Part shown: piece after piece, positions 11,564 through 35,155 of the stretch
How positions within the stretch are numbered: position 1 is the stretch's first letter
Layout of the letters: every line of letters starts with the position of its first letter
Source: Candidatus Fimenecus sp.
GTDB taxonomy: Bacteria > Bacillota > Clostridia > Oscillospirales > Acutalibacteraceae
Assembly (NCBI GenBank): GCA_045659165.1
Contig: JAZOWH010000105.1
Location: 1 to 35,155, forward strand
Length of the DNA stretch: 35,155 nucleotides
Direction: 5' to 3'
Made by a program: the position numbers and the translations under genes
Notes under the pieces: model-generated
What the model was told of the DNA's origin: nothing
What the model saw: only the letters and a program-made list of their open reading frames with translations
The model's database searches: none

Positions 11564-12769
11564 TTAACGTTCTACACTTAATATACCATCAACTTTTTCA
11601 ATACGAGAAATGAGGTTCTTCAAGTGGTCAATACCACTGACATTAACGGTAAGCTCAATAATTGTTCTTCCGTCTTTCATATCGTGGGTACTGATGCTTG
11701 TAATATTAACACGCATATTTGCAACCTGCATTGCAACTTCTGCCATAAGACCAACTCGTGAAAGACAAGTGAGCTGAAGTGTTGCTTTGTATTCTTCCTT
11801 CACATTCTGATTCCAATGTGCATTTACCCAACGAGCAGGCTCGGCACAGTTGATAACATCCTTTGGCACATTTGTACAATCTCTCTTATGAATTGAAACA
11901 CCGTGACCACGAGTGATAAATCCGATAATGTTGTCACCTGGCAATGGATTACAGCATTGTGAGAATTTGATAAGACAGTTATCAATTCCCTCAACAGTAA
12001 CACCATCTTTGTTTTTCTTTGAATTATCCTTAACAGTAACAACCTTGATTTCCTGACGGCTCTTATCATAATTTTTCTGATATTCTTCTTTGATATATGG
12101 CATCATACGGTTGATGGAAAGTCCACCATAACCGATTGCCGCATAGAAATCATCAACATTTTCAAGACGCTGACGCTCAGCAAGTTTCTTGATAAACTTT
12201 TGATAATCCTCGTCAGAAAGACGGATATAATTTCGTCTGAACTCGCGTTCAATTTCAGCTTTACCTTCAATAATATTTTCTTCTCGTTTTTCCTTTTTAA
12301 ACCAAGAACGAATTTTGCTCTTTGCTTGGCTTGTCTTTACAATATTGAGCCAGTCACGACTTGGACCTTTACCCTGTTGAGAAGACGTAAGAATTTCGAC
12401 AATTTCACCTGTTTTGATTACATAATCAATAGGCACAATTCGTCCGTCAACCTTTGCACCTGTCATCTTGTTACCAACAGCAGAGTGAATAGCATATGCA
12501 AAGTCAATTACGGTTGAGCCAACAGGCACATTGATAACGTCACCCTTTGGAGTATAGACAAATACTTCATCAGTAATAAGGTCGGTTTTAATTGTGGAAA
12601 CAAGTTCTCTTGCGTCCCCTGTCTCCTGCTGTGTTTCAAGCATTTCACGAATCCACTGCAAACGTTGGTCGAAGCTCTGTTTTCCACCTGAAACACCAAG
12701 CTTGTATTTCCAATGGGCTGCGATACCGAACTCGGCAGTACGGTGCATTTCCCAAGTTCTGATTTGCAC
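11564..12769 (-). CDS. Alternative reading: Rel C-terminal fragment (end of synthetase domain, TGS, helical and ACT regions)
   Basis: The ORF could only start at an internal GTG (12769) or the ATG of EMH. No RBS was noticed, so independent translation is doubtful. Confidence 0.3.
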   Translation of the reverse strand: [401 protein letters not shown]

Positions 12770-12817
12770 TTCAAAAGGTGTTCCCTCTTTACCGATTACA
12801 GTTGTATGAAGTGACTG

Positions 12818-13768
12818 TTACATATTTGGTTTTGGTGTTGAAATATAGTCTTTGAATCTGCCTGGAAGCGGATTATACATATCATGAATAATACCAAGGC
12901 AGTTATAACAGTCGATTACACTATCAACAATAATACGGACAGCATAAATATCGTAAATTTCGTCAAACTGTTTACCTTGCATATACATTTTACGATAAAT
13001 ACCATGAACAGACTTGATTCGTCCACTGATTTGAGCCTTTGGTACAGTTTCGTGAACTCTGTCACCTATTTTCTGTTTTATACTTTCAAGGAAATCGATT
13101 CCTGAATCATTTGATTTCTTTAAACTATCCTCGATTCCTTCATAAGCCACAGGGTCAAGAAATCGGATTGCTTTATCTTCAAGTTCTTCCTTTACGGAAC
13201 GGATACCGAGACGATGAGAAATAGGAGCAAAAATCTCAAGTGTTTCAAGAGCTTTATCACGCTGTTTCTGTGCTGGCATAAACTGTAAGGTTCTCATATT
13301 ATGCACACGGTCAGCAAGTTTAACGATAATAACACGAATATCCTTTGACATAGCAAGAAGCATTTTACGGATATTTTCTGCCTGTTGCTCTTCTTTTGCT
13401 TCACTTGAATTAATCTGAACCTGACCAAGTTTTGTAACACCGTCAACAAGTACTGCTACTTCTTCACCAAAGTCTTCAACAAGTTGTTCGATTGTGTATG
13501 GAGTATCTTCCACAACGTCGTGAAGAAGTGCTGCAACCAAGGATTGCCAATCCATACCCAAATCAACAAGTATGTCACACACAGCAATTGGATGAATAAT
13601 ATATGGCTCACCGGACCTGCGTTTTTGGTCACCATGATACTGATTTGCAATTGAAAATGCCTTATCAATAACCTTTAATTCTTCTTCATTGTGAATTGCC
13701 TTTATTCTGTTTCGTAAGTTCTCAAAAAGTTCATTCACATCTACATTTACATTAACAACCTCTGCCAT
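12818..13768 (-). CDS. Alternative reading: Rel N-terminal fragment (HD hydrolase domain plus first part of the synthetase domain)
   Basis: 316-aa ORF ending at the TAA at 12818-12820. Contains RRSGEPYIIHPIAV, LLHDVVEDT and ADRVHNMRT hydrolase motifs. Confidence 0.5.
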   Translation of the reverse strand: MAEVVNVNVDVNELFENLRNRIKAIHNEEELKVIDKAFSIANQYHGDQKRRSGEPYIIHPIAVCDILVDLGMDWQSLVAALLHDVVEDTPYTIEQLVEDFGEEVAVLVDGVTKLGQVQINSSEAKEEQQAENIRKMLLAMSKDIRVIIVKLADRVHNMRTLQFMPAQKQRDKALETLEIFAPISHRLGIRSVKEELEDKAIRFLDPVAYEGIEDSLKKSNDSGIDFLESIKQKIGDRVHETVPKAQISGRIKSVHGIYRKMYMQGKQFDEIYDIYAVRIIVDSVIDCYNCLGIIHDMYNPLPGRFKDYISTPKPNM

Positions 13769-23670: not shown

Positions 23671-25065
23671 TCAGTTTATCTCATCAAGATTTGCGCCTTT
23701 TGTTTCTTTGACACCTTTTGTGAACATAATTGCGGCAACTCCTACTGCCACAACGGAAATTGCAAGACATACCCACCAGATTGGGAATTTAATCATACCT
23801 ACGATTGCAAGGAGATAGCCTACAGCAAGGCCTATAATCACTAAAAGTCCTTCTGCACCAACTACTGATGCACGGATATCTGTCGGTACTTTTTCTGTCA
23901 TCATAACATTCATATAATCTCTGCCAATCCAATATGAACCCTGATAAAGTCCTGCGAAGAAACCGATAAGATATGGATTCCAACCACAGAGAATACCTGC
24001 TACAAAGAGAGAATATCCAATGATACAGGTAATTGAAAAGCCTGTCACAGTCACCTTTCTTCCAAGTTTATCTGCAATAAAACCTGAAAGGAATGTAATT
24101 GTTGCATAGACCACAGGAACCATAAAAAGAGCCTTAGTAATATCACTTGTACTCATACCTACTTTGTGCATTGAAGATTCAAAATAGAGGGCAATTGCAG
24201 GCATTGCAGAGTCGAATATAATGTGTGAAATAATAAGATTTTTTGTATCAGAATTTGAGAAGATGTATTTCACGCCATTAAAAACACCTGACTGATTTCG
24301 TTGTGCTTCCTTCTGTTGCTTTTTGAGTTCTTTTTCTGCTTGTCTTTCTTCGATTGGTCGTGAAAGATATTCAATTCTTTCATTTATAAACACCTTTGTA
24401 TCCTTTGCAAAGATTACAACGAGTAAAACTGCAATAAAGCCGATGACAGCAGGTACTAAAAAGATTTCACGCCATTTTGTAGCATCGTCACCCATAAGTG
24501 CATCACGAAGTGCAGGAATAAGAATAACACCTAAGATTCCGAAACTCTTTAAAAAGCTGTAAATTTTTGCACGATGTTTGTCCGGTGCTTCTTCAAGGAT
24601 ATAAATAATCTGGATATCGTGTCCCATAAAGAAGCTGATGATTGCAAAGCCAACAAGGAACATTATGTAGCTTGATGAAAGGTGTATTACAAGAAGACCC
24701 AAAGCCATACCAAGCGTTGAAATGGCAAAGAGCGGTTTTCGTCCCCATTTGTCGGCAAGTGCCTTATAAAACGGTGTAAAAATTCCTAAAACATAGGTGA
24801 AAACACCCACACCTGAATGAAGCGCAAGGCCTTCCTGAAATGTGTAATATTTACCCATAAAAGGATTATTCACAAAAAACTCTGTAACGAATGACGACTG
24901 CACTGTAACAGTAAGGTTACTTGTTACCTCGTCAAGAATATTTACGATTGCAATAAGAGCGAGTAACACAAAAAAGTATTTGCTACTAGTCCCCCTGCTT
25001 TGCATCTTTTTTAATCTTTTAATTTCTCTTTGTTCAGCTTGTGAGATTTTATCTGCTGTTTTCAT
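23671..25065 (-). CDS. MFS transporter
   Basis: About 12 predicted TM segments. MFS motif A-like ALADKWGRKP between TM2 and TM3, and a long basic central loop. AAAGGGGA RBS lies 7 nt before the ATG at 25065; the track start at 25071 is TTG. Confidence 0.8.
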   Translation of the reverse strand: MKTADKISQAEQREIKRLKKMQSRGTSSKYFFVLLALIAIVNILDEVTSNLTVTVQSSFVTEFFVNNPFMGKYYTFQEGLALHSGVGVFTYVLGIFTPFYKALADKWGRKPLFAISTLGMALGLLVIHLSSSYIMFLVGFAIISFFMGHDIQIIYILEEAPDKHRAKIYSFLKSFGILGVILIPALRDALMGDDATKWREIFLVPAVIGFIAVLLVVIFAKDTKVFINERIEYLSRPIEERQAEKELKKQQKEAQRNQSGVFNGVKYIFSNSDTKNLIISHIIFDSAMPAIALYFESSMHKVGMSTSDITKALFMVPVVYATITFLSGFIADKLGRKVTVTGFSITCIIGYSLFVAGILCGWNPYLIGFFAGLYQGSYWIGRDYMNVMMTEKVPTDIRASVVGAEGLLVIIGLAVGYLLAIVGMIKFPIWWVCLAISVVAVGVAAIMFTKGVKETKGANLDEIN

Positions 25066-25093
25066 TACCAAATCCCCTTTCAGTTATATCTCA

Positions 25094-25122
25094 ATTATAA
25101 GAAATAAAATAAGACCTGTCAA
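25094..25122 (-). promoter_or_regulatory. Perfect-consensus sigma-A promoter for the MFS gene
   Basis: On the minus strand: TTGACA (25122-25117), 17 nt, TATAAT (25099-25094). The -35 lies inside the descending arm of the upstream terminator hairpin. Confidence 0.55.
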
Positions 25123-25136
25123 CAAAGACAGGTCTT
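25111..25136 (-). terminator. Intrinsic terminator after paralog P1
   Basis: On the minus strand, aagacctgtc-tttgtt-gacaggtctt is followed by a U-rich attttattt, 24 nt after the P1 stop. Confidence 0.6.
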
Positions 25137-25159: not shown

Positions 25160-26164
25160 TTAGCCCTTAAAACCACCGTTGAGTGTAACAACAAAGTCAA
25201 CAATTGCAGTTGCCTGCTGAACAGGTACTGTCATACCCAAACCTGAAATTGTCATATTGTTAAGAGTGATATTTACATAATAACTCCAAGTACCGTTGAT
25301 AATTCTGCCGTTACTGTCAATAGCAACCTTAAGTCTTGGGTTTTTGTATTGAAGTGTACAATCCTGGTCAGCAATTTCTGCAGTCATACCAAGTGCTGAG
25401 AATTGACCAACAACTGAATCAATATCACCAACAACTGAAATAGCATGGCCAACTGAACCACTGTACATATTTCCGTTACCCTTATCAACCTGTTCCTTCA
25501 TAACCATTTCGATTATGATGTTGTTGCCGTTCTTGTATGCTCTTGCAGCCTGAACATCAGAAACAGAAAGATTCTGATGACCACCTGTAATACCTTTAAT
25601 ATTCATTGAGTTATTACTGAGTGCTTTTGCCATAACGCCTTCTGCAAAGCTGAGCAATGGAGCAGCTATACCAGGTGCATTAAGTGAATTAGCACGAAGC
25701 TTCATATCCTGATATGAAGTTACTGAGTTATGAGTTCTTCCTGCCGCATGTCTATATGTTTCAACAATTTCTGCAGTTGACCACTTTGTAGGGTCAACAG
25801 TTGCCTGTTGATTATTATTCTGCTGATTGTTGTTCTGCTGAATATCCTGCTGACTATCCTGCTGGTTATAATTTGGTACAAAATCATTATACTGACCAGC
25901 ACCTTCAACATCCTTCAATTCAATCTGGCCTGATTCAATAAGGTAATTATAATATTCGAACATCTGACTACAATATTCACATTCGCAAGTAGGAACACCA
26001 TTCTTGTTCTTATTTGATGAAATTGCAAAAGAAATTGAGAAAACTGCTACAAAAAGAACTACAACTGCTAAAACAATAGCAATGATTTTCTTTGTTTTAT
26101 TTGACTTTTTAGGTGATGCAGGTTCTGTTGGCTGAACAGGCTGCATTGGTTCCATATGTTCCAT
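25160..26164 (-). CDS. Surface-anchored protein P1 with unassigned conserved C-terminal domain (paralog 1 of 3)
   Basis: GGGAGGA RBS. Pro-rich cytoplasmic tail, one TM (IIAIVLAVVVLFVAVFSISFAI), a CxCxxC motif and a Q/N-rich linker. The domain shared with 29485-30456 and 30615-31532 has these blocks: W(S/T)..EIV..Y, GITGG, SDV..A.AYK.G, VE(M/L).M.EQ.D, G(S/T).GH.I.V.G.I, Y.(N/D)P..KV.I...G.I..G.WSY and GGF at the end. Confidence 0.75.
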   Translation of the reverse strand: MEHMEPMQPVQPTEPASPKKSNKTKKIIAIVLAVVVLFVAVFSISFAISSNKNKNGVPTCECEYCSQMFEYYNYLIESGQIELKDVEGAGQYNDFVPNYNQQDSQQDIQQNNNQQNNNQQATVDPTKWSTAEIVETYRHAAGRTHNSVTSYQDMKLRANSLNAPGIAAPLLSFAEGVMAKALSNNSMNIKGITGGHQNLSVSDVQAARAYKNGNNIIIEMVMKEQVDKGNGNMYSGSVGHAISVVGDIDSVVGQFSALGMTAEIADQDCTLQYKNPRLKVAIDSNGRIINGTWSYYVNITLNNMTISGLGMTVPVQQATAIVDFVVTLNGGFKG

Positions 26165-26196
26165 AGTTATATCCTCCCGACTACATATATGAATTT

Positions 26197-26225
26197 ATTT
26201 TACTATATTTACACTTCTTTGTCAA
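26197..26225 (-). promoter_or_regulatory. Sigma-A type promoter in front of P1
   Basis: On the minus strand: TTGACA (26225-26220), 17 nt, TAAAAT (26202-26197). Confidence 0.5.
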
Positions 26226-26320
26226 TGAAAATGCTAAATACTCCATCAAGGCAAACAAAAACACCCACTTCATATAATCACCACAGAATTATGGCAATCT
26301 CAAAAAGTGAGTGTTATTTT

Positions 26321-27745
26321 TTATTTTCCTATTTCAATAATCGCTTTTTCAAATTCATTATAGAATTCTGTTACAATTTCCTTGTCTTTTTCAGTACCAA
26401 AGAAACTGATTGAAATATGCAAATCGCCATTGAAACTACCTATTGTTGCAACTGCACAAGGCTTACGCTTTGCAGCACCTGATGCATACATATCCAAAGG
26501 CTCATTTCCTTCCATTGAGAGCAGCTGTGTCTTTACAACACCAAGGTTGCTGACTGACAATGACGGATTACTGTAGCACATTTTAATAATCGGTTCAGCC
26601 TGTGCATAAACCATTGATTTATATGCAAAATCCAACAATGGTACACCATAAAGCCCCATAAACTCGTCATTCTTATAATTAAGACCGGCTTTTTTTACTG
26701 CTTCAAGTGTCTGAAGAGGAGTTTCACCCACCTTATCAACTGTACAGTTAATAAATGAAACCTCGTTTGTATAACCAAGTTTTGCTGGATTTTTGATATA
26801 TCTTCTCAAATCCACAGCAGTTGTCACATTAACAGCACTATCCCCTCTCAATGAAGCAAGTTTTCTATAAGCAGACATATATGCAGTTATCAGCAAATCA
26901 TTTCCGCTACATCCTGCTTTTTTAGCAACATTCAATGCAGGTTTAAAGACTTCACCACTAATCTTTTTGCGTGTCAGAATGGGTTTATCATCTTTATTTT
27001 CAGGTGTATAAGGGAAAATATTTTTCACCTTTGATGCAGGGTTTGTAAAAAGAGCTTTTGCCTTTTTACGTTTCTCTTTCTCAAAATCACCATACACCTG
27101 GTCAAAATCTCTTGGTCCCTGACTGTAATCAATAGGACTTATACCTTTTTGAACAAGGTTTGTATAGTTACGGCATATATCAGCAACAAAAGTGAAGAAG
27201 CCTGTACCGTCAACGCACATATGATTCACAAGATAACATACAGTTGTTTTACCGGAATCATAAAAAAGATGAACCTTAAGCTGGATATTACTATCTGTTG
27301 GAATTTCCTGTGTAAAGAAAGCATCTCTTTTTGAAATAGTTGGTTCTTCCTCAGATGATGTTACAACCTCATCAATATGATATGGCATTGGCTTCCAATA
27401 TGGTGAAATCGGACTATAAACCACTTTAGAACGGAATATATGTGCCTTTTCCAACAATCCCATAACCGCAGTTTTATAATTTCTTTCATCAACTATATAG
27501 TCATAGACAAGCTCTAGTCTTTCCATTCTATCCATGTATTTACGACACATATAATTGATTTTATCAAGCAATTCGCAGGATATTTTTTTAGGACGTTTAC
27601 ATAATTTTCCGTTTTTAATTTCACTTTCAATAAGGTCAACACAGAATTTTTCGTTGTCTGCACCACTTTCAACAAGTTCTGAAAGTCTTGCATTTACTGC
27701 TGAATTATTTACTGAAAGTTGTTTTAAAACTTTATCACAATTCAT
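26321..27745 (-). CDS. HxxxD acyltransferase of the condensation / CAT-like superfamily (stand-alone C-domain-like or alcohol acyltransferase-like)
   Basis: VNHMCVDGTGF (His codon at 27221-27223) matches the (H)HxxxDG catalytic motif at about the expected distance from the N-terminus. Size of about 474 aa fits. AAGGGG RBS lies 9 nt before the ATG at 27745, and only 13 nt separate it from the GH3 stop. Confidence 0.55.
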   Translation of the reverse strand: MNCDKVLKQLSVNNSAVNARLSELVESGADNEKFCVDLIESEIKNGKLCKRPKKISCELLDKINYMCRKYMDRMERLELVYDYIVDERNYKTAVMGLLEKAHIFRSKVVYSPISPYWKPMPYHIDEVVTSSEEEPTISKRDAFFTQEIPTDSNIQLKVHLFYDSGKTTVCYLVNHMCVDGTGFFTFVADICRNYTNLVQKGISPIDYSQGPRDFDQVYGDFEKEKRKKAKALFTNPASKVKNIFPYTPENKDDKPILTRKKISGEVFKPALNVAKKAGCSGNDLLITAYMSAYRKLASLRGDSAVNVTTAVDLRRYIKNPAKLGYTNEVSFINCTVDKVGETPLQTLEAVKKAGLNYKNDEFMGLYGVPLLDFAYKSMVYAQAEPIIKMCYSNPSLSVSNLGVVKTQLLSMEGNEPLDMYASGAAKRKPCAVATIGSFNGDLHISISFFGTEKDKEIVTEFYNEFEKAIIEIGK

Positions 27746-27758
27746 TATGATTTGCCCC

Positions 27759-29453
27759 TTAGTCAATTACATGAGACAAGAAGAATTCTCTTCTTTCATC
27801 ACTATCAATAACCTTGATTGGCTTAACCTGATTAAGGTTTGCACCACGAGCTCTGAGTACCTCACGATAATCGTCATATGTGCCGTGACGAAGGAATTTA
27901 ACTTCACATTTTCCGAGAGCACCACTATCGATAAGTGGTTTAACAGAAACATTACCCTCGCAGAGTTTTTCTTCAAATACTTTTGTATATCTTTCCCATT
28001 CACTCTTTGACACAGGCTTTGCAGTTTCAACAAGAAGTGCATAGTGTCCTGGTGAAGTTGTACGGTCAGGATAAATGCTATAACCGATAAATGTTTCATT
28101 AAGTTCTTCACACATATTTGCTACGATTTCGTCAAATGCCATTGAACTGATTTTTTCACCACTGATATTTGCAATCTGGTTAAGTCTGTAACAGAATGTA
28201 ATTTTTGGTGATTCGTGGTAGAAACCTGTTACACGAATTACGTCTTCAATTCTGTAACGATAGAAACCACTTGTATTTGTAAGAATGATTTCATATTCCT
28301 TGCCAACTTCAAGGTCCTTGATTGTAAGAAGGTTATCATAATCATCTGAATCAATAGGACGGAATTCGTAGAAACCATTCTGTGGAAGCATTACATATTC
28401 AAATGAATTGAGTTCAATTGGAACTGCCATCATTGCTTCTGTTGCAGCATATCCAAGATAGTGAATAGCCAAGTCATCACCAAGATATCTCTTGAGTTTC
28501 TTTTCATAGAAAGCAAGAGCACCTGTACCCATACCATACATCCATGAAACGTTTGGCCAGATTCTTGGCACGATTGGTGATACGTCAAAGCCTTTACGGA
28601 ATTCTGCACGAAGTTCTTCAGCTCGTTTTGGATTTGGTTTGAGTGACTTCTGAAGTTTTACTCGCATTTCATCAGGACATCTTATACTGCTGTTGATAAC
28701 ACCTTTTTCAATATCGTCACAAATCATTTCCCAATTTTCTTCTAAATAGAAGAACATAGATTCAAGTGTTGTGATGAAAATTGTACCAAGATAACTTACA
28801 TTTCTGTGCTGTAAAGCAAAGAGTAATTTAAGGTAATGTGAATCATAATCAAGGTTTCCATCAGCAAACTGTAATTCTTTAGGTGATGTTCCAATGAATG
28901 GAACAACAGGCTTAATATTAAGAAGTGGAATTGAAGAAAGACAACTTACTGTTTTTCCACTATCAAGTTTACGACAGTTTACTTCCGCAGTGAGCAAGCC
29001 CTTCTGTGGTGGCATTTTTTTGCCCTGTGATTTGAAATACTTATAAGCACAACCAACAGGTGCACTGAAACTGAAACACTGACAAACCCATTCAGCCCAT
29101 GCTGAAAGTGGTACAAGTTTTGACTTACCTGTACTACCTGATGACTCTGTAAATCTACGTACAAAAGCTGCTGTGTTAAGGTTCTTTTCACCATTTGCCA
29201 TTCTTTGTACATACTCGTCATAATCATAGTAGTTTGTAAGTGGAACAAGTTTTTTGTAATCTTCGTAACTATGTACATCAGCAAAATTGTTCTTTTTGCC
29301 GTAAACTGTATTCTTGTTCTTTTTCATCAATGATTTCAACACAGTTTCCTGAACTTTGTTTGCATTCTTGGCATAGATTTCCAATTTAGCAAGTTCCATT
29401 CGTCCAAGCATAATACCAAAATTGGTGTTCATTCTAGCTAATATAGGATTCAT
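27759..29453 (-). CDS. GH3-family adenylate-forming acyl-acid amido synthetase-like protein
   Basis: Three GH3 core motifs seen: FTESSGSTGKSKLVP (the P-loop-like SSGTTxGxxK motif), YLGYAATEAMMAV (the YASSE-like motif), and FYRYRIEDVIRVTGFYHESPKITFCYR (plant GH3 has YRYR.GDV..V.GF.N..P...F..R). Start set at the ATG at 29453, after GGGGTG. Confidence 0.75.
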   Translation of the reverse strand: MNPILARMNTNFGIMLGRMELAKLEIYAKNANKVQETVLKSLMKKNKNTVYGKKNNFADVHSYEDYKKLVPLTNYYDYDEYVQRMANGEKNLNTAAFVRRFTESSGSTGKSKLVPLSAWAEWVCQCFSFSAPVGCAYKYFKSQGKKMPPQKGLLTAEVNCRKLDSGKTVSCLSSIPLLNIKPVVPFIGTSPKELQFADGNLDYDSHYLKLLFALQHRNVSYLGTIFITTLESMFFYLEENWEMICDDIEKGVINSSIRCPDEMRVKLQKSLKPNPKRAEELRAEFRKGFDVSPIVPRIWPNVSWMYGMGTGALAFYEKKLKRYLGDDLAIHYLGYAATEAMMAVPIELNSFEYVMLPQNGFYEFRPIDSDDYDNLLTIKDLEVGKEYEIILTNTSGFYRYRIEDVIRVTGFYHESPKITFCYRLNQIANISGEKISSMAFDEIVANMCEELNETFIGYSIYPDRTTSPGHYALLVETAKPVSKSEWERYTKVFEEKLCEGNVSVKPLIDSGALGKCEVKFLRHGTYDDYREVLRARGANLNQVKPIKVIDSDERREFFLSHVID

Positions 29454-29484
29454 ATTAATCACCCCGAAAAATTATATCTTAATT

Positions 29485-30456
29485 TTAAAAACCGCCACCA
29501 GTTGTTACAACATAGTCAATATCACCTGATGCATCCTCAACGAGAACTTTTTCAATCTGAAGACCTCTTACAGTAACACTGACAACATAACTCCAAGTAC
29601 CTTTTTCAATAACACCCTTTTCATTAATCTTAACCTTCACCACAGGGTTCACATAATGAAGTTCAACAAACGCATCTTTAAAGTTGATTGTCCATGAAGG
29701 GAAATTATCAGCAACAACCGCAATGTTACCAACAACAGAAATTCCGTGACCTGTTGTACCCTTGAATGTATCACCATATGCGTCATCTTTCTGCTCAACC
29801 ATTGTCATTTCGACAATTGTATATTTACCCTCTTTATATGCCTTTGCTGTCTTTACATCAGATGGAACAAGGTCATTATAGCCACCTGTGATACCATCAA
29901 ACTCAATTGAATTTGCTTTAAGTGCAGCTTTCATAATAGGCATTGCGAGTTCAATAAGGAATTCCAAAGCACTATTACTGAGTTTAACCTTTATTCCCTC
30001 ATCCATTGTCATTTTCTGAATTGACTTAACACCTGTTGAGTTGTTAGCTGCTTTTTTGTAGTAATTTACGATTTCAGCCTTTGTCCATTCAGCAGGATTC
30101 TTTGGAAGTTCACGTTCAGGTTCTTTTGTATCTTCCTGATTTTCGCTATCCTGCACCGCATCATCTGTTTCAACACCAGTCTCTGTGTTCTCATCAACCA
30201 TTTCGTCTGATACGCCATCATTTGACACAAACCCATCATCGTCTGTACCAGGTGCATCATCTGCAATAATAAAATCTGAACCAGTCTGCTCAAGTTGTTT
30301 CTGAGCTGTTGATTTACCTATAACAAGGACTCCCATTGCAATAGCAACAGCAAGGACAACAGCAAGAAAACTTGTAAAACCTGAAGCTGCCTTTTCCTTC
30401 TTCATTTTATTAATTTCCACCTGTTCCGGAGTTAAAGGTGTTTTTGATTTTGCCAT
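29485..30456 (-). CDS. Surface-anchored protein P2 with the same unassigned C-terminal domain (paralog 2 of 3)
   Basis: AAAGGGGAA RBS. Basic cytoplasmic tail, one TM (FTSFLAVVLAVAIAMGVLVIG), an acidic D/E-rich linker, then the shared domain ending TTGGGF. Roughly half the domain residues are identical to P3 in my by-eye alignment. Confidence 0.75.
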   Translation of the reverse strand: MAKSKTPLTPEQVEINKMKKEKAASGFTSFLAVVLAVAIAMGVLVIGKSTAQKQLEQTGSDFIIADDAPGTDDDGFVSNDGVSDEMVDENTETGVETDDAVQDSENQEDTKEPERELPKNPAEWTKAEIVNYYKKAANNSTGVKSIQKMTMDEGIKVKLSNSALEFLIELAMPIMKAALKANSIEFDGITGGYNDLVPSDVKTAKAYKEGKYTIVEMTMVEQKDDAYGDTFKGTTGHGISVVGNIAVVADNFPSWTINFKDAFVELHYVNPVVKVKINEKGVIEKGTWSYVVSVTVRGLQIEKVLVEDASGDIDYVVTTGGGF

Positions 30457-30495
30457 AACAAAATTCCCCTTTTAAATACAACTTTATATTTAATC

Positions 30496-30524
30496 ATTTT
30501 ACCCCTTTTGTGTTCATTTGTCAA
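30496..30524 (-). promoter_or_regulatory. Sigma-A type promoter of the P2-GH3-acyltransferase(-P1) unit
   Basis: On the minus strand: TTGACA (30524-30519), 17 nt, TAAAAT (30501-30496). The -35 flank atttgtcaacgaaaa is 14/15 identical to the one in front of P3. Confidence 0.5.
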
Positions 30525-30547
30525 CGAAAAACATTGTTGTATACCCT

Positions 30548-30587
30548 TCATTTTGCACTTTGCGCTTTGCACTCTGCCTTTTGCATT
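30548..30587 (-). repeat. Terminator-adjacent TGCAAA motif, copy B (expanded)
   Basis: The minus strand reads aatgcaaaaGGcagagtgcaaaGCGCAAAGTGCAAAatga directly after the T7 tract of the P3 terminator. It contains four (T)GCAAA units. Confidence 0.6.
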
Positions 30588-30610
30588 AAAAAAACTCCCT
30601 TTCGGGAGTT
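30586..30610 (-). terminator. Intrinsic terminator after P3
   Basis: On the minus strand, aactccc-gaaa-gggagtt is followed by T7. The hairpin starts 4 nt after the stop codon. Confidence 0.75.
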
Positions 30611-30614
30611 TTTC

Positions 30615-31532
30615 TTAGAATCCGCCACCTACGACGATTACATATTTCATTATTGCATCTGCTTTATTAACCATAATTCCGCTGATTTCAAGATGTCTGA
30701 TTTTGATGTCAGCATTATAACTCCATACGCCTTTTTCAATGATACCCTTATCATTGATTTTAACCTTAACTGTTGGGTCGGCATAACGGATTTTAATATC
30801 TGCTTCCTTGTATTTAATATCAAACTGTGGGAACTGGTCAACTGCTGTTGCGATATTGCCAAGAACATTGATTGCGTGACCAACTGAACCTGACTGAGCA
30901 TCACCATACATACCGTCTACTTGTTCAACCATATACAACTCAACGACTGTATAGTTACCCTGCTTATATGCCTTTGCAGACTTTACATCAGATGCCTGAA
31001 GCTTTGTAAAGCCACCTGTAAGTCCGTTATAAGTCATAGCGTTATTCTTAATAACTGTGCTGATAGCAGGCTTAATCATATTAAGGAAGAAGTTAAGAGC
31101 TCCATCACCATCGTTGACAACGAGTTTTGCAAGTTCCATTGTCTGTGATGATTTTACAGTAGGATGAGTTTTGATTGCAGACTGTTTATAATACTCAACA
31201 ATCTGCTCCTTTGACCACTTTGCAGGGTCATCAGGAAGTTCTTCTTTTACTGTTGTTGATTCGACTTCCTTATCTTCTGTATCTTCTTTGTCATTTTTAT
31301 CATCAACCTTGTCAGTTGAAGGTTCTTCTTCACCTTCTTCAGTTGAAGGTTCTTCTGTCACAGATTCATCAGTTGAAGGTTCAACCTGAACATCGTCTGA
31401 ATTTACAGCTTTATCCTCTGTTGTGCTTTCTGTATTCACATCAGTTGTAGGGGTCTCATCATTGTTACCACCACAAGCCACAAAAACAAACATCATTGAC
31501 AATACTAAAAGAATAGCAATTATTTTTTTCAC
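30615..31532 (-). CDS. Lipoprotein P3 with the same unassigned C-terminal domain (paralog 3 of 3)
   Basis: AGGGAGG RBS lies 8 nt before the GTG at 31532. Signal peptide VKKIIAILLVLSMMFVFVAC with a lipobox-like FVAC (Cys codon at 31473-31475). Acidic linker with EPST repeats, then the shared domain ending VVGGGF. Confidence 0.75.
   Translation of the reverse strand: MKKIIAILLVLSMMFVFVACGGNNDETPTTDVNTESTTEDKAVNSDDVQVEPSTDESVTEEPSTEEGEEEPSTDKVDDKNDKEDTEDKEVESTTVKEELPDDPAKWSKEQIVEYYKQSAIKTHPTVKSSQTMELAKLVVNDGDGALNFFLNMIKPAISTVIKNNAMTYNGLTGGFTKLQASDVKSAKAYKQGNYTVVELYMVEQVDGMYGDAQSGSVGHAINVLGNIATAVDQFPQFDIKYKEADIKIRYADPTVKVKINDKGIIEKGVWSYNADIKIRHLEISGIMVNKADAIMKYVIVVGGGF
31312..31382 (-). repeat. 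In-frame coding repeat in the P3 linker
   Basis: The 14-nt unit tcagttgaaggttc occurs three times (31312, 31339, 31369) at 27- and 30-nt spacing, encoding EPST(D/E). Confidence 0.8.
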
Positions 31533-31564: not shown

Positions 31565-31593
31565 ATACTACAATAATTCATAATATTTGTCAA
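31565..31593 (-). promoter_or_regulatory. Sigma-A type promoter in front of P3
   Basis: On the minus strand: TTGACA (31593-31588), 17 nt, TAGTAT (31570-31565). It begins 6 nt after the upstream stop codon. Confidence 0.45.
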
Positions 31594-31599
31594 CGAGAA

Positions 31600-33192
31600 T
31601 TACTGAACAGATTCTATCATTTCCACAAATGATTTCACAAAAACTGAACCCGCAGTTCTGCTAACGATATTTACTTCCTCATTTTCACCGATTAATGAGT
31701 GGTATTCATTGTCACGAAGAACATATCCTGCCTGGTCATTACAAAGACCATAAACCATTACATTTGGAACATCTATAGCATCTGTCAATGGCGCATAATC
31801 CCATGATTCACCTGTCCATGCTGCATCTCCTGATTCAGGTCCACCAAAGATAAGCATAGGGTCAAACTCACCTGGACACATAAAGACACCGACTTTGTTG
31901 CCGAGTTCCATATATCCGATTTCAGTAACCATTATCTTCTTCAAGCCATCTTTCACAATTACTGGTGTAAGAATATCCTGACGAGCAGCAAGAGTGAGTA
32001 TTCCGTTATCAACATTCAAATAAACTTCTTTGTGTGCCACATTGAGTACAGGCTCAAGCTTAATATCATTGTTGATTTTAATTATCTTATCTGCAAGTGC
32101 ATAACCGTAGCTTGTGATATTTTCAATATCAGTTGCACCATCTTTGTTTGTCAATTCTTTTTCTTGTCGGATTGCAAGTTCAGCACCGATTACATAAACT
32201 ACATTTGCACCAGCTTTTTCATTAATTGCCTTTTCAATATAGTAAGGATAGTCGGCAGTAAGTTCATCAGGTCCTGCACCCATACCTGTACAATGCATTG
32301 AGCCCTGAAGAATCCATGTTTCTTTTGAACCATCTGCAGGTACGAAACGAAGTCTGTGCATATTTGAGTCAAATGACCAAGGGTCACGTGCATCACGCAT
32401 ATATTCACTTACATCTGTGTAGCCATAATAAAGGTTACCTTTTTTCATATCCTTGATTGCACTTTCAACACAATCAACTGTTTTTTGGAAAAGGTTATCC
32501 ATAAACTTTTGATTCTTTACAACCTTATACTTATTAAAGATACCACCTAATGCAGCGTTTGATGTATTGATAATAAGACCTGATAAAAGTGGAATATTCA
32601 TACCAAGAGTATCAATACATGAATGCTGATGTAAAACAGAAACATTTAAACTGATTATATTATTGTTAGCAACAGCCTGTTCAACCTTGTTACGGATTGT
32701 CTGGACATCCCCTCGTGAAAGTCCAAAACCATCAATAACTGCATGAACCACAATACCGCTTACACCATCACTTACAGCGTAAACTCTTACTCGTTGGTCA
32801 TCATTGATTTTTTTAGGCACTCTACCTTCAAACACCTCAAGTGACCCTGCAAGGAAATATTCCCCATTCATAATGTCAAGGCCCTCAAGGAGTGATGCTC
32901 CTGCATAACCCATATACCATGCTGAATCCTTCTGTGTGTTTTTGTCAAACTTCTTTTCGCCTTCATAAAAATTATTAGCTTCGTAATCTTTAAGTTTTTC
33001 CCAATCCCCGTCATACCCAGGCCAGAATACATTAAGCACAGTAAGAATTCTGTGGATAAGCACATCAAGGCAAAGATTAAGAGAGTTTTCAATATTGATA
33101 GTTTCTGTCTTTACAAAAGCAGAAACAGGCACACTGAAAACTGAAAACATCATAACGAGAGAAAGGACTATTGCGAGAATCTTTTTTGTCAT
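31600..33192 (-). CDS. Secreted hydrolase, tentatively neutral/alkaline ceramidase-like (N-terminal domain family)
   Basis: Signal peptide MTKKILAIVLSLVMMFSVFSVPVSA after an AAGGGG RBS; the ATG at 33192 is used and the 34-codon upstream extension is rejected. The layout LAG....R....I.D...VR.YAV.DG....VVHAVIDGFG, then LHQHSCIDT (compare THTHSGP), then PGEF and N.QAGYV resembles bacterial ceramidase-domain proteins. Recognised by eye only. Confidence 0.4.
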   Translation of the reverse strand: MTKKILAIVLSLVMMFSVFSVPVSAFVKTETINIENSLNLCLDVLIHRILTVLNVFWPGYDGDWEKLKDYEANNFYEGEKKFDKNTQKDSAWYMGYAGASLLEGLDIMNGEYFLAGSLEVFEGRVPKKINDDQRVRVYAVSDGVSGIVVHAVIDGFGLSRGDVQTIRNKVEQAVANNNIISLNVSVLHQHSCIDTLGMNIPLLSGLIINTSNAALGGIFNKYKVVKNQKFMDNLFQKTVDCVESAIKDMKKGNLYYGYTDVSEYMRDARDPWSFDSNMHRLRFVPADGSKETWILQGSMHCTGMGAGPDELTADYPYYIEKAINEKAGANVVYVIGAELAIRQEKELTNKDGATDIENITSYGYALADKIIKINNDIKLEPVLNVAHKEVYLNVDNGILTLAARQDILTPVIVKDGLKKIMVTEIGYMELGNKVGVFMCPGEFDPMLIFGGPESGDAAWTGESWDYAPLTDAIDVPNVMVYGLCNDQAGYVLRDNEYHSLIGENEEVNIVSRTAGSVFVKSFVEMIESVQ

Positions 33193-33452: not shown

Positions 33453-35009
33453 ATGAGTAAACCACAGCTTTTAACAGTAAAAGATATCGTTAATTTTGCT
33501 GCTGAAAAATACGGTGAGAAAGACTTTTGTAAGTTTTTCCGTGACAGCGAAATCGAAATCAAAAATTTCAGCGAATTCCGTGAAGATTGTCTTGCTGTTA
33601 GCAGATACATAAAAACTATTGAAAAAGAAAAAATGCACATTGCATTTATCGGCAAAACAAGTTACGAATATATTGCTTGTCTTACAGGTATGATTTGTAG
33701 CGGTAATGTTGTTGTACCATTTGACCCTAATATTTCTGTGGAAGAAGCTTGTCAGCTTTTTGACGACGCTGACATCCAGATGCTTTTCTGTGAAGAAGAA
33801 TTTTTAGGTAAAGCAGAAGAAATCCAGAAAACATATAAGGGCATCCGTCAGGTTGTATCTCTTGGTGACTGGCACTGGTTTGACAACATTTTCAAAACAT
33901 ATTCTGCTGATTCAGAATATGCTCACCTTTCAGATATCGAGATTGACCCATATGAATGTGCATTGATTATCTACACATCAGGTACAACAGGTGAAAGAAA
34001 GGGCGTTATGCTCACTAACCACAACCTTGCATCTAACTCATGTTACGATACATACAAGGCTGCTGATGGTGAGGTTTGTCTTTCAGTTTTACCTATGCAC
34101 CATGTTTTCTGTTATGCATGTGACGTGCTTAAGGTACTTTATGACGGTTCTGCAATTTGTCTTAACGGTGCACTCACAAACATTTACAGAAACTTCCTTA
34201 TATTTGAACCAACAAACACAAGAATCGTTCCACTTCTTTGTAAAGCAATTATTACAAAAATCAAAATTCAGGAAAAGAAACATCCTGAACTTTCTCCTCG
34301 TGAAGCTGCTGAGCTTGTTGTTGGTAAGCGTCTTACAAGATTCATTGCTGGTAGTGCTTTCTTAAGTGGTGCTTTAATTGATGAATTTGCAAAGTACGGA
34401 ATTACTGCTCGTCAGGGTTACGGTATGAGTGAATGTAGTCCTCGTATCACAACATCTGACTTTTCAGAAGATAATAAATATTCAAATGGTGTTCTCACAG
34501 GTGTTGACGATGTAAGAGTTGTTGACGGTGAAATTCAGGTTAAGGGTCCTTCAGTTATGAAAGGATACTACAAAAAGCCTGAAAGAACTGCTGAGGCATT
34601 CACAGAAGACGGATATTTACATACAGGTGACTTAGGTTATATTGAAAATAACCACATCTACCTCGTTGGTAGAAAGAAAAACCTTATCATCCTTTCAAAC
34701 GGTGAAAACATCTCTCCTGAAGAACTTGAAAACAAGTTTGTTGACGACGGAATCGTGAAAGAAATCGTTGTACGTGGTGAAAAGGATACAATCATTGCAG
34801 AAATTTTCCCTGATAATGACCTTGCTAACACATTGGGAATTACAGATATTCCTGCTGAAATCAGCAAGATTGTTGACAGAGTAAATACAACTCTTAACAC
34901 AGACAGACAGATTCATTCGTTTGTTATAAGAGAAACTCCATTCGAGAGAACTTCAACAGGCAAAATCAAACGTGCACAATTTAACTTTGCGGAGGATGAA
35001 GCAAAATGA
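33453..35009 (+). CDS. ANL-superfamily adenylate-forming enzyme (long-chain fatty acyl-CoA/AMP ligase-like)
   Basis: IIYTSGTTGERKGVMLTNHNL (A3/P-loop), GYGMSEC (A5), GDLGY...YLVGRKKNLIILSNGENISPEELE (A7-A8) and TSTGKIKR (A10). Confidence 0.8.
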   Translation: MSKPQLLTVKDIVNFAAEKYGEKDFCKFFRDSEIEIKNFSEFREDCLAVSRYIKTIEKEKMHIAFIGKTSYEYIACLTGMICSGNVVVPFDPNISVEEACQLFDDADIQMLFCEEEFLGKAEEIQKTYKGIRQVVSLGDWHWFDNIFKTYSADSEYAHLSDIEIDPYECALIIYTSGTTGERKGVMLTNHNLASNSCYDTYKAADGEVCLSVLPMHHVFCYACDVLKVLYDGSAICLNGALTNIYRNFLIFEPTNTRIVPLLCKAIITKIKIQEKKHPELSPREAAELVVGKRLTRFIAGSAFLSGALIDEFAKYGITARQGYGMSECSPRITTSDFSEDNKYSNGVLTGVDDVRVVDGEIQVKGPSVMKGYYKKPERTAEAFTEDGYLHTGDLGYIENNHIYLVGRKKNLIILSNGENISPEELENKFVDDGIVKEIVVRGEKDTIIAEIFPDNDLANTLGITDIPAEISKIVDRVNTTLNTDRQIHSFVIRETPFERTSTGKIKRAQFNFAEDEAK

Positions 35010-35155
35010 TAGAAAAAACATTACCAGATGGCAAAGTTGTCAAAGCGTATCCTATCTCAAACTCACAGAAAATGATGTTCTTAATGTCACTCAAATACGG
35101 TTCAGGATATCCTGTTAACAACATCGGTTGCGGTTACTACTGGCAGGGTGAAATG
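35006..35155 (+). CDS. Partial ORF (first 50 codons), possibly a condensation-domain-like protein
   Basis: ATGA overlap with the ligase stop. YPISNSQKMMFLMS resembles the N-terminal C1-type motif of condensation domains (S..Q..m....). Too short to be sure. Confidence 0.3.
   Translation, partial: MIEKTLPDGKVVKAYPISNSQKMMFLMSLKYGSGYPVNNIGCGYYWQGEM

Follow-up and report, generated by a model that had tools for sequence, protein, structure and literature searches.

Three paralogs of an extracytoplasmic domain without a family match, on differing tethers, in a contig of Candidatus Fimenecus

Among the described systems that come closest to the one considered here are the non-catalytic binding modules (carbohydrate-binding modules, CBMs, and 'X' modules) that Gram-positive bacteria carry on surface and cellulosomal proteins, and the mycobacterial lipoproteins typified by LprG, which works with the MFS pump Rv1410 in a lipid hand-off. 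The surface proteins of gut Clostridia (Acutalibacteraceae, Ca. Fimenecus) are, to our knowledge, almost wholly uncharacterised; Ca. Fimenecus itself reportedly figures in gut-microbiome association studies. The subject of this analysis is a trio of minus-strand genes, designated P1, P2 and P3, in a 35,155-nucleotide stretch of Candidatus Fimenecus sp. DNA (assembly GCA_045659165.1, contig JAZOWH010000105.1, positions 1 to 35,155; the whole stretch is referred to below as the window). Their products share a C-terminal domain that is new and well delimited, and that is set in a known type of architecture: an anchor, a linker and an extracellular head.

Three genes, one domain, three tethers

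P1 (25160-26164, 334 amino acids), P2 (29485-30456, 323 amino acids) and P3 (30615-31532, 305 amino acids counted from GTG 31532) lie on the minus strand where the first-pass annotation, made from the sequence without database searches, had placed them, and its proposal that they are three paralogs of a domain of ~200 residues is confirmed. BLASTP with composition-based statistics aligns P2 with P3 at 44% identity over 233 amino acids (E 2e-68), P1 with P3 at 40% (E 2e-47) and P1 with P2 at 37% (E 3e-43), and in all pairs the alignment is confined to the C-terminal ~205-230 residues. The ~205-residue domain occupies 25163-25807 in P1, 29488-30114 in P2 and 30618-31244 in P3 (delimited from open reading frames (ORFs) and alignments, and for P3 also by a hidden Markov model). 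Smith-Waterman comparison of the globular segments with 300 shuffles yields z = 86 for P2/P3, 65 for P1/P3 and 55 for P1/P2; the linkers alone yield z = -0.5 to 2.7. The coincidence of high z in the globular part with low z in the linkers establishes that the similarity is domain homology, and not the compositional resemblance against which the annotation had cautioned.

The broader suspicion that the similarity is an artefact of composition or annotation, and that these ORFs are not genes, is refuted by the confinement of the high shuffle scores to the globular part, the hundreds of homologs under evident purifying selection, a confident structural model, the Shine-Dalgarno sequence of P3 and the promoter-like sites before all three genes. 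It is because of that Shine-Dalgarno sequence, GGGAGG 8 nt upstream, that GTG 31532 is preferred as the P3 start over TTG 31562, where the ORF mechanically begins. The seven motif blocks listed by the first-pass annotation are present and collinear in all three proteins, but P1 deviates from their patterns at two positions: its first block, PTKWSTAEIVETY, has T at the pattern's K, and its fourth reads IIEM against (I/V)VEM. P1 also ends in GGFKG, so that GGF is not final there. All the residues that are conserved family-wide are kept in P1, P2 and P3, except that V121 is replaced by T in P2 (in the domain numbering used throughout, residue 1 is residue 97 of P3), and none of the three paralogs looks degenerate.

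The anchors and linkers differ from copy to copy, as had been read from the translations at the outset. P3 begins MKKIIAILLVLSMMFVFVAC-GG, which is read as MKK-IIAILLVLSMMFV-FVAC-GG, with FVAC as the lipobox and its Cys as residue 20 (signal peptide and lipobox at ~31473-31532, Cys20 at 31473-31475). Judged by pattern, P3 has the charged n-region, the hydrophobic h-region and the conserved lipobox Cys of a bacterial lipoprotein; at lipobox position -3, F is seen less often than L, V or I, and the Cys is kept in P3 orthologs and in many further family members. The linker that follows (31245-31472) is rich in D/E and in P/S/T and carries three EPST repeats. P1 and P2 are probably transmembrane-anchored, by putative type II signal anchors. 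Each has a K/R-rich tail of 26 residues (residues 1-26; in P2 30379-30456, predicted to be cytoplasmic) and then a hydrophobic segment, which in P1 comprises 22 residues (27-48, ~26021-26086, mean Kyte-Doolittle hydropathy 3.2) and in P2 21 residues (27-47, ~30316-30378, mean hydropathy 2.7). The segments are preceded by the charged stretches KKSNKTKK and KMKKEK, respectively, and possible signal-peptidase I sites are found in both proteins (SFA-I in P1, STA-Q in P2, the hyphen marking the bond). The P2 linker (30115-30315) is D/E-rich; that of P1 (25808-26020) combines a Q/N-rich tract with a juxtamembrane CECEYC motif.

Two details of these N-terminal regions deserve separate mention. The CECEYC motif forms an extracytoplasmic Cys cluster right after the transmembrane segment of P1 (residues 60-66, ~25967-25987, minus strand), matches the FeoB-associated Cys-rich membrane proteins weakly in Pfam (E 0.031), and occurs in neither P2 nor P3. 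The P2-type tail (P2 residues 1-26; homologs P0092-P0117) is conserved across species as M(A/S)K..LT.EQ.EI.(A/K)MKK. A sequence that served topology alone would not be expected to show such conservation, which hints at an interaction in the cytoplasm.

A family restricted to uncultured gut Clostridia

The first-pass annotation could place the domain in no family, and extensive searching bears it out. The domain of the three window proteins has no match at gathering threshold in Pfam-A (24,736 models), and none of the confident matches to a characterised Pfam domain that might have settled its identity emerges; in 50 diverse relatives (E up to 0.1) and in 130 representatives, Pfam finds tether and fusion domains only. 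NCBIfam, PHROGs and PADLOC also leave the domain unmatched, their weak matches falling only in the N-terminal lipoprotein signal or transmembrane region; PADLOC, PHROGs, Rfam and tRNA scans return nothing relevant. A single-sequence search of PDB sequences gives 0 matches at E up to 10, and a 50-sequence profile run against PDB chains matches only in signal-peptide and linker columns, with a best E of 0.031 against a threshold of 0.001.

The structure that AlphaFold predicts for the domain improves with the depth of the alignment, from a pLDDT of 80.7 with 13 sequences to a pLDDT of 94.4 and a pTM of 0.89 with 50 diverse sequences. The model is a compact two-layer alpha+beta domain that runs from a helix (residues 12-29) through a strand (31-44), a second helix (48-67), strands at 70-73, 87-95, 98-105 and 108-110 and two short helices to three long strands (149-163, 169-187 and 190-205). 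Foldseek, with a match taken as E <=0.001 and a TM-score of ~0.5 or more, finds no significant neighbour in the PDB, where the best hit is the START domain of CERT (2e3o; E 0.019, probability 0.15, TM 0.17, root-mean-square deviation ~17 A), or in BFVD (best E 0.0066, TM 0.21). The non-significant matches at the top of the list are CERT-START, MTP, an FABP-like allergen, CoxG, PYL, PRELID and LolB. The structural comparison that the annotation had proposed thus returns a confident model without a significant neighbour, and on the strength of the model the fold is possibly new.

A word-indexed search (E up to 0.001) recovers 740 clusters at 90% identity, none with a Pfam domain and the few named ones called 'hypothetical protein'; searching 1.84 billion representatives exhaustively with a profile recovers 205 clusters at 50% identity. 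When the profile is built from the members that diverge most, the word-indexed search returns only 3 proteins and does not widen the family. The organism names recovered all belong to uncultured gut metagenome-assembled genomes (Candidatus Fimenecus, Acutalibacteraceae, 'Clostridia bacterium'), mostly from ruminants, and the window domain is 94% identical to that of a Ca. Fimenecus genome of this kind. A scan of genomes for related loci, made with a closer alignment and therefore covering only close relatives, finds 113 domain genes in 85 loci at 1-3 copies per locus, two assemblies having two separate loci each. In a neighbour-joining tree of 116 domain sequences the P1-, P2- and P3-type genes form separate lineages, each of them shared among Fimenecus species, which makes the triplication an old event.

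Conservation was assessed over 122 sequences taken from 50%-identity clusters. A near-invariant aromatic set is composed of Y19 in helix 1 and Y154, W174 and Y176 on adjacent strands, and its periodicity would fit an inward-facing core. The most conserved residues outside the core are D86 (98%), G119 (97%), Q108 (94%), G77 (93%) and D110 (80%), a polar, Gly-rich loop set and as such the foremost candidate for a functional site. Within the close subfamily H123 is retained, whereas distant members have lost both it and S85. As a sequence proxy for the hydrophobic cavity that the annotation had suggested looking for, hydrophobic content is unremarkable (54 of the 205 positions hold a hydrophobic residue in >=80% of sequences).

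The variety of tethers seen in the window extends to the whole family, in which the domain lies almost always at the extreme C-terminus. P1 orthologs are transmembrane-anchored in the window and in loci L007 and L030 and are lipoproteins in six others (L002, L027, L028, L032, L035 and L040), and the gene at the P3 position is transmembrane-anchored in another sub-lineage. Linker flavour is kept within a lineage (Q/N-rich in the P1 clade, D/E- and P/S/T-rich in the P3 clade), and linker length is 42-78 residues in every locus ORF but one, which is truncated. Among the 130 representatives, eight place a cytoplasmic zinc ribbon and a transmembrane helix before the domain, five carry a type I dockerin and one carries choline-binding repeats; Ig-like or Listeria-Bacteroides repeats serve as further tethers in the wider family. 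One of the dockerin proteins, P0147, has two tandem copies of the domain. In a single cluster (P0244) the domain is C-terminal to a GH16 catalytic domain, a placement like that of a CBM, and in another single cluster it is fused to a chagasin-type inhibitor. About 110 of the 130 have no other Pfam domain at all. The tether is thus interchangeable (lipobox, transmembrane helix, zinc ribbon with transmembrane helix, choline-binding repeats or dockerin), and the picture suggested by these sequences is of a self-sufficient extracellular head that would need only to be retained at the cell surface, by whatever means. Dockerin, GH16, choline-binding and tandem fusions are typical of the binding modules of polysaccharide-degrading Firmicutes.

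Neighbouring genes

In the window the minus-strand order is U564, P3, P2, a GH3-family ligase gene, an acyltransferase gene, P1 and an MFS transporter gene. Promoter-like sites, identified only as consensus matches, precede P3 (TTGACA-17-TAGTAT, 31565-31593, 10/12), P2 (TTGACA-17-TAAAAT, 30496-30524, 11/12) and P1 (TTGACA-17-TAAAAT, 26197-26225, 11/12), all on the minus strand. Just past the P1 stop lies a terminator-like hairpin (25111-25136, minus) with a 10 bp stem and a T-run. It is overlapped by a perfect promoter-like TTGACA-17-TATAAT (25094-25122, minus), the -35 hexamer of which is inside the hairpin, before the MFS gene (23671-25071, minus). MFS genes lie near domain genes in 15 loci; their products are conserved at 83-93% identity, far above the domain genes, and the L002 homolog also matches Sugar_tr.

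U564 (31600-33192, minus) is a secreted or anchored protein of 530 amino acids whose start is taken as ATG 33192 in preference to the mechanical TTG 33294. It stands directly upstream of P3, and in the 85 loci surveyed it is directly upstream of a domain gene on the same strand in 24, all of the Fimenecus clade. No other gene is a tight conserved partner of the domain genes, and U564 is one in that clade alone. U564 has ~1,200 homologs (530-532 amino acids at 100% coverage) and no match in Pfam, NCBIfam or the PDB, the PDB profile search included, so that the operon-like unit with P3 holds a second family without a library match. Its invariant polar motifs are DDQRVR, HQHS-IDTLGMN, DYPYYIE, PGEF and N-DQAGY-L-DNEYHS. 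A neutral-ceramidase-like amidase (PF04734) was considered and rejected: U564 scores 11 bits (E 0.15) against a threshold of 32.1 bits, 4 of 68 homologs match with a best E of 0.11, which is noise, and the PDB profile is blank; the by-eye resemblance in HQHS, PGEF and GLxN...Y...EY has been dropped as evidence. Nor is U564 a family-wide partner, since its distant homologs (L086-L088) have no domain gene nearby, and its pairing with the domain is therefore specific to one clade. These distant homologs are followed by a conserved ~495-residue protein without a Pfam match (8825-10321 in L087, 8902-10389 in L088), in which the domain studied here is absent.

The genes between P2 and P1 encode a GH3-family ligase (27759-29462, minus) and an HxxxDG-type acyltransferase (26321-27766, minus) that overlap by 8 nt. 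The ligase has the N-terminal, middle and C-terminal domains of a GH3 acyl-acid amido synthetase, all above threshold (PF03321, E 1.8e-76; PF23571, 7.1e-25; PF23572, 3.4e-17). The acyltransferase has the motif NHMCVDG, to be compared with the HHxxxDG of WS/DGAT, PapA5 and condensation-type acyltransferases, and PapA_C, Condensation, WS_DGAT_C and TIGR02946 all score below threshold. In planctomycetes the GH3-like OlsH and a separate O-acyltransferase, OlsI, make ornithine lipid (PMC12493201). The window ligase is not an OlsH equivalog by the NCBIfam model (68.6 bits against a cutoff of 620); by analogy, an N-acyl amino-acid-type lipid of a Clostridium could be the product of the pair. The pair was rejected as a part of the domain system: the window and 9 other loci have it within or next to the array, a GH43-type gene (GH here denoting a glycoside hydrolase family) lies between the P2 and P1 homologs instead in L002 (12088-13101) and L034 (5879-6889), and many arrays have no insert. 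With such varying cargo the P2-P1 interval behaves like an insertion hot spot.

Divergent from U564 is an acyl-CoA-ligase-like gene (33453-35009, plus), followed through an ATGA overlap by a translationally coupled condensation-domain gene (plus), which has its start at 35006 and is truncated at 35155, where the window ends. Ligase genes of this cluster (c1) lie near domain genes in 27 of the 85 loci. They do so in at least 4 arrangements: divergently from U564-P3 (in Fimenecus), on the strand of the domain gene and ~20 nt downstream of it (L072, L084), ~3 kb upstream (L070) and ~4 kb downstream (loci of the L023 type). The condensation-domain gene follows the ligase in 13 loci, and in L005 the pair is followed by genes for a carrier protein (PP-binding) and a CBAH/AAT-family hydrolase; the sequences of this set suggest a stand-alone acyl-amide module resembling a nonribosomal peptide synthetase. 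In L084 a lipase is present as well, together with an acyltransferase homolog. In other clades the neighbours are GH36-like, GH51-like, NAGLU-like and GH43-type genes; a GH130-like gene lies ~15-20 nt upstream of the domain gene in L070, L072 and L074, and transporters of the GPH/MFS_2 and Sugar_tr types are found near domain genes. Gene context is thus split, with glycoside hydrolases and sugar-type transporters in some clades and acyl-CoA ligases and acyltransferases in others.

Several further observations concern the surroundings of the domain genes. A metallophosphoesterase was rejected as a recurrent partner, the membrane-anchored cluster c6, to which the window copy conforms, having no significant similarity to the cytoplasmic cluster c11 and no PDB relative. 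In one Acutalibacteraceae clade (L049, L052, L053, L062 and L066) three tandem paralogs that by eye are endonuclease/exonuclease/phosphatase-like lie upstream of the domain gene, with a GH36-like gene, divergent from the domain gene, in between. In the window an in-frame TAA (12818-12820) divides a RelA/SpoT homolog (11564-13768, minus) into two ORFs within the synthetase motif ...PKPNM-stop-QSLHTTV..., at a position where other RelA/SpoT proteins presumably have Tyr. The TAA could be a nonsense mutation, mark a pseudogene or be an assembly error.

Function, and comparison with known systems

We read the domain, tentatively, as a non-catalytic surface binding head whose ligand is most likely carbohydrate, and assign this reading a probability of about 0.3. 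The paralogy, the architecture with its exchangeable tethers, the lack of a match, the distribution and the conserved lineages are shown by the data above, from which binding as opposed to catalysis, the class of ligand and the place of the site are inferred. Attachment to the membrane would be at the N-terminus, through the lipid-modified Cys of P3 or through the single N-in/C-out hydrophobic helix of P1 and P2, and a low-complexity spacer of 66-76 residues, presumably disordered and long enough to span a Gram-positive wall, would display the compact ~205-residue alpha+beta domain outside the cell. There the head would capture an extracellular molecule, probably a dietary or wall glycan or an oligosaccharide, and retain it on the surface for the use of hydrolases or transporters close by. 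The two long helices are predicted to pack on the long antiparallel sheet by way of the aromatic core of Y19, Y154, W174 and Y176, and the Gly-rich loop cluster (G77, D86, Q108, D110, G119) would form the putative binding site; the three paralogs may differ in specificity or in reach. The lean to binding comes from the occurrence of the domain in tandem and as the head of several kinds of tether, and the lean to a glycan from the dockerin, GH16 and choline-binding fusions, the GH130-like and other glycoside hydrolase neighbours, the sugar-type transporters, and the Asp, Gln, Asp and Gly of the loops. As evidence the fusions outweigh the neighbourhood, because the genomes are rich in glycoside hydrolases. 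Some facts weigh against this reading. The modelled fold is alpha+beta, whereas CBMs are typically beta-sandwiches; adjacency to a glycoside hydrolase is of low specificity because the genomes of gut Clostridia are rich in such enzymes, and only one cluster in 130 shows the GH16 fusion. The window locus and two distant loci stand amid genes for acyl handling (a ligase, the GH3 gene with its acyltransferase, a lipase), the weak matches at the top of the Foldseek list are mostly lipid binders, and a catalytic or metal-binding site could account just as well for the Gly-rich loops with their invariant Asp and their Gln and Asp.

That last point is where catalysis enters. The first-pass annotation had held binding and enzymatic roles equally plausible; the present analysis leans to binding, and the D86/Q108/D110 cluster keeps some weight on a small extracytoplasmic enzyme of new fold (for example a hydrolase, lyase or transferase with wall or dietary polymers as its substrates), with these residues as its active or metal site. 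This alternative is on the unlikely side. Its basis is that the three residues, together with G77 and G119, are the most conserved ones outside the core, that H123 is conserved in the close subfamily, and that with ~110 of the 130 representatives lacking any other domain the whole function must come from this one; modules borne on dockerins or choline-binding repeats are, moreover, often enzymes. It has to contend with the finding that no Ser, Cys or His is conserved family-wide as a nucleophile (distant members keep neither S85 nor H123), with tandem copies and a position C-terminal to GH16 that are more typical of binding modules, and with Pfam and Foldseek searches that detect no catalytic motif or enzyme family. 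The acyl-handling genes, for their part, favour the main rival reading, in which the head would bind a lipid or amphiphile, such as a fatty acid or N-acyl amino acid, between helices and sheet, and would act with the adjacent MFS transporter and with cytoplasmic enzymes of acyl activation or transfer in the manner of LprG-Rv1410, either in scavenging exogenous lipid or in handling an exported acyl-amide lipid. The recurrence of the c1 ligase in four or more arrangements, the condensation and carrier genes that follow it, the lipase and acyltransferase homolog of L084, the GH3-acyltransferase pair in or beside ten arrays and the MFS gene adjoining P1 all point this way, as do the best, non-significant, Foldseek matches (lipid binders such as CERT-START, MTP and LolB) and, in the model, the broad hydrophobic face of helix alpha2, which has the lowest pLDDT and may act as a lid. 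We nevertheless place it, too, on the unlikely side: the best Foldseek E is 0.019 with TM below 0.25, the C-terminal helix of START/Bet v 1 is lacking, the 54 hydrophobic positions out of 205 are an ordinary complement, and a lipid binder fused to GH16 or dockerins would be odd. The GH3-acyltransferase insert is variable, which suggests a hot spot of insertion and not a unit with a function; the MFS protein resembles sugar porters, and the co-occurrence with the ligase is mostly synteny within one genus.

A role as a protein-protein or envelope module, be it as a partner, chaperone, inhibitor or dock for U564, or as a sensor coupled to the cytoplasmic tail or zinc ribbon, is very unlikely. The placement of U564 directly upstream in 24 loci, the sequence conservation of the P2-type tails and the eight zinc-ribbon representatives speak for it, the last having a layout that recalls RsgI-type and zinc-binding anti-sigma factors. 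However, the U564 pairing is limited to one clade, most family members and the distant U564 homologs being unpaired; in versions that are lipoproteins or bear a dockerin a cytoplasmic part is absent, and signalling therefore cannot be the core function; and no sigma factor or regulator is consistently adjacent in the 85 loci. A bolder synthesis holds that a new fold founded a class of wall-spanning, tether-agnostic capture proteins in Gram-positive gut anaerobes that in the Fimenecus island would be the extracytoplasmic arm of a system for acyl-amide lipids, of N-acyl amino acid or lipopeptide-like type (ligase, condensation and carrier proteins, GH3 ligase with acyltransferase, MFS transporter, U564), a non-homologous functional analogue of LprG-Rv1410. 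It is improbable.

By itself the domain is one more domain of unknown function, and nothing points to an unusual mechanism. Its interest is that of a new family with a confident model lacking a detectable relative and found only in uncultured gut Clostridia. Such a family lends itself readily to curation in Pfam and to structural genomics. If the reading as a substrate-capture head is true, it would show how these organisms present ligands to transporters that have no binding proteins of their own.

Set against described systems, the domain shares something with each. The eight representatives composed of zinc ribbon, transmembrane helix, linker and extracellular domain, and the conserved P2-type tails, are reminiscent of RsgI-type and zinc-binding anti-sigma factors, but an anti-sigma domain is not detected in them, nor is a sigma factor adjacent, and most members are lipoproteins or short-tailed. 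The lipoprotein solute-binding proteins of ABC importers have in common with P1, P2 and P3 a lipobox or transmembrane tether and the capture of ligand proposed here; consistently adjacent ABC genes and a two-lobe fold are lacking, and the long linker would be unusual among them. START/Bet v 1 (SRPBCC) domains, which provide the best Foldseek match, 2e3o, are similar in size and in the composition of helices on a long antiparallel sheet; the present model ends in strands (residues 149-205) without the C-terminal gripping helix, and the TM-score is 0.17. With LprG or LppX and the pump Rv1410 (P55) the comparison is one of layout, a tethered extracytoplasmic domain of ~200 residues next to an MFS gene in a lipid-related context. 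LprG, LppX and LolA are not among the top 50 Foldseek matches, in which only LolB appears (rank 49, E 0.31), and the window MFS protein is sugar-porter-like, its gene apparently having its own promoter past a terminator-like hairpin. The CBMs and 'X' modules differ in that no Pfam family, those of CBMs included, matches the domain, and in that its model is two-layered alpha+beta rather than a beta-sandwich. In organization they are alike: autonomous modules of ~200 residues on long low-complexity linkers, here standing alone on an anchor or joined to dockerins, choline-binding or Ig-like repeats or GH16, and sometimes in tandem.

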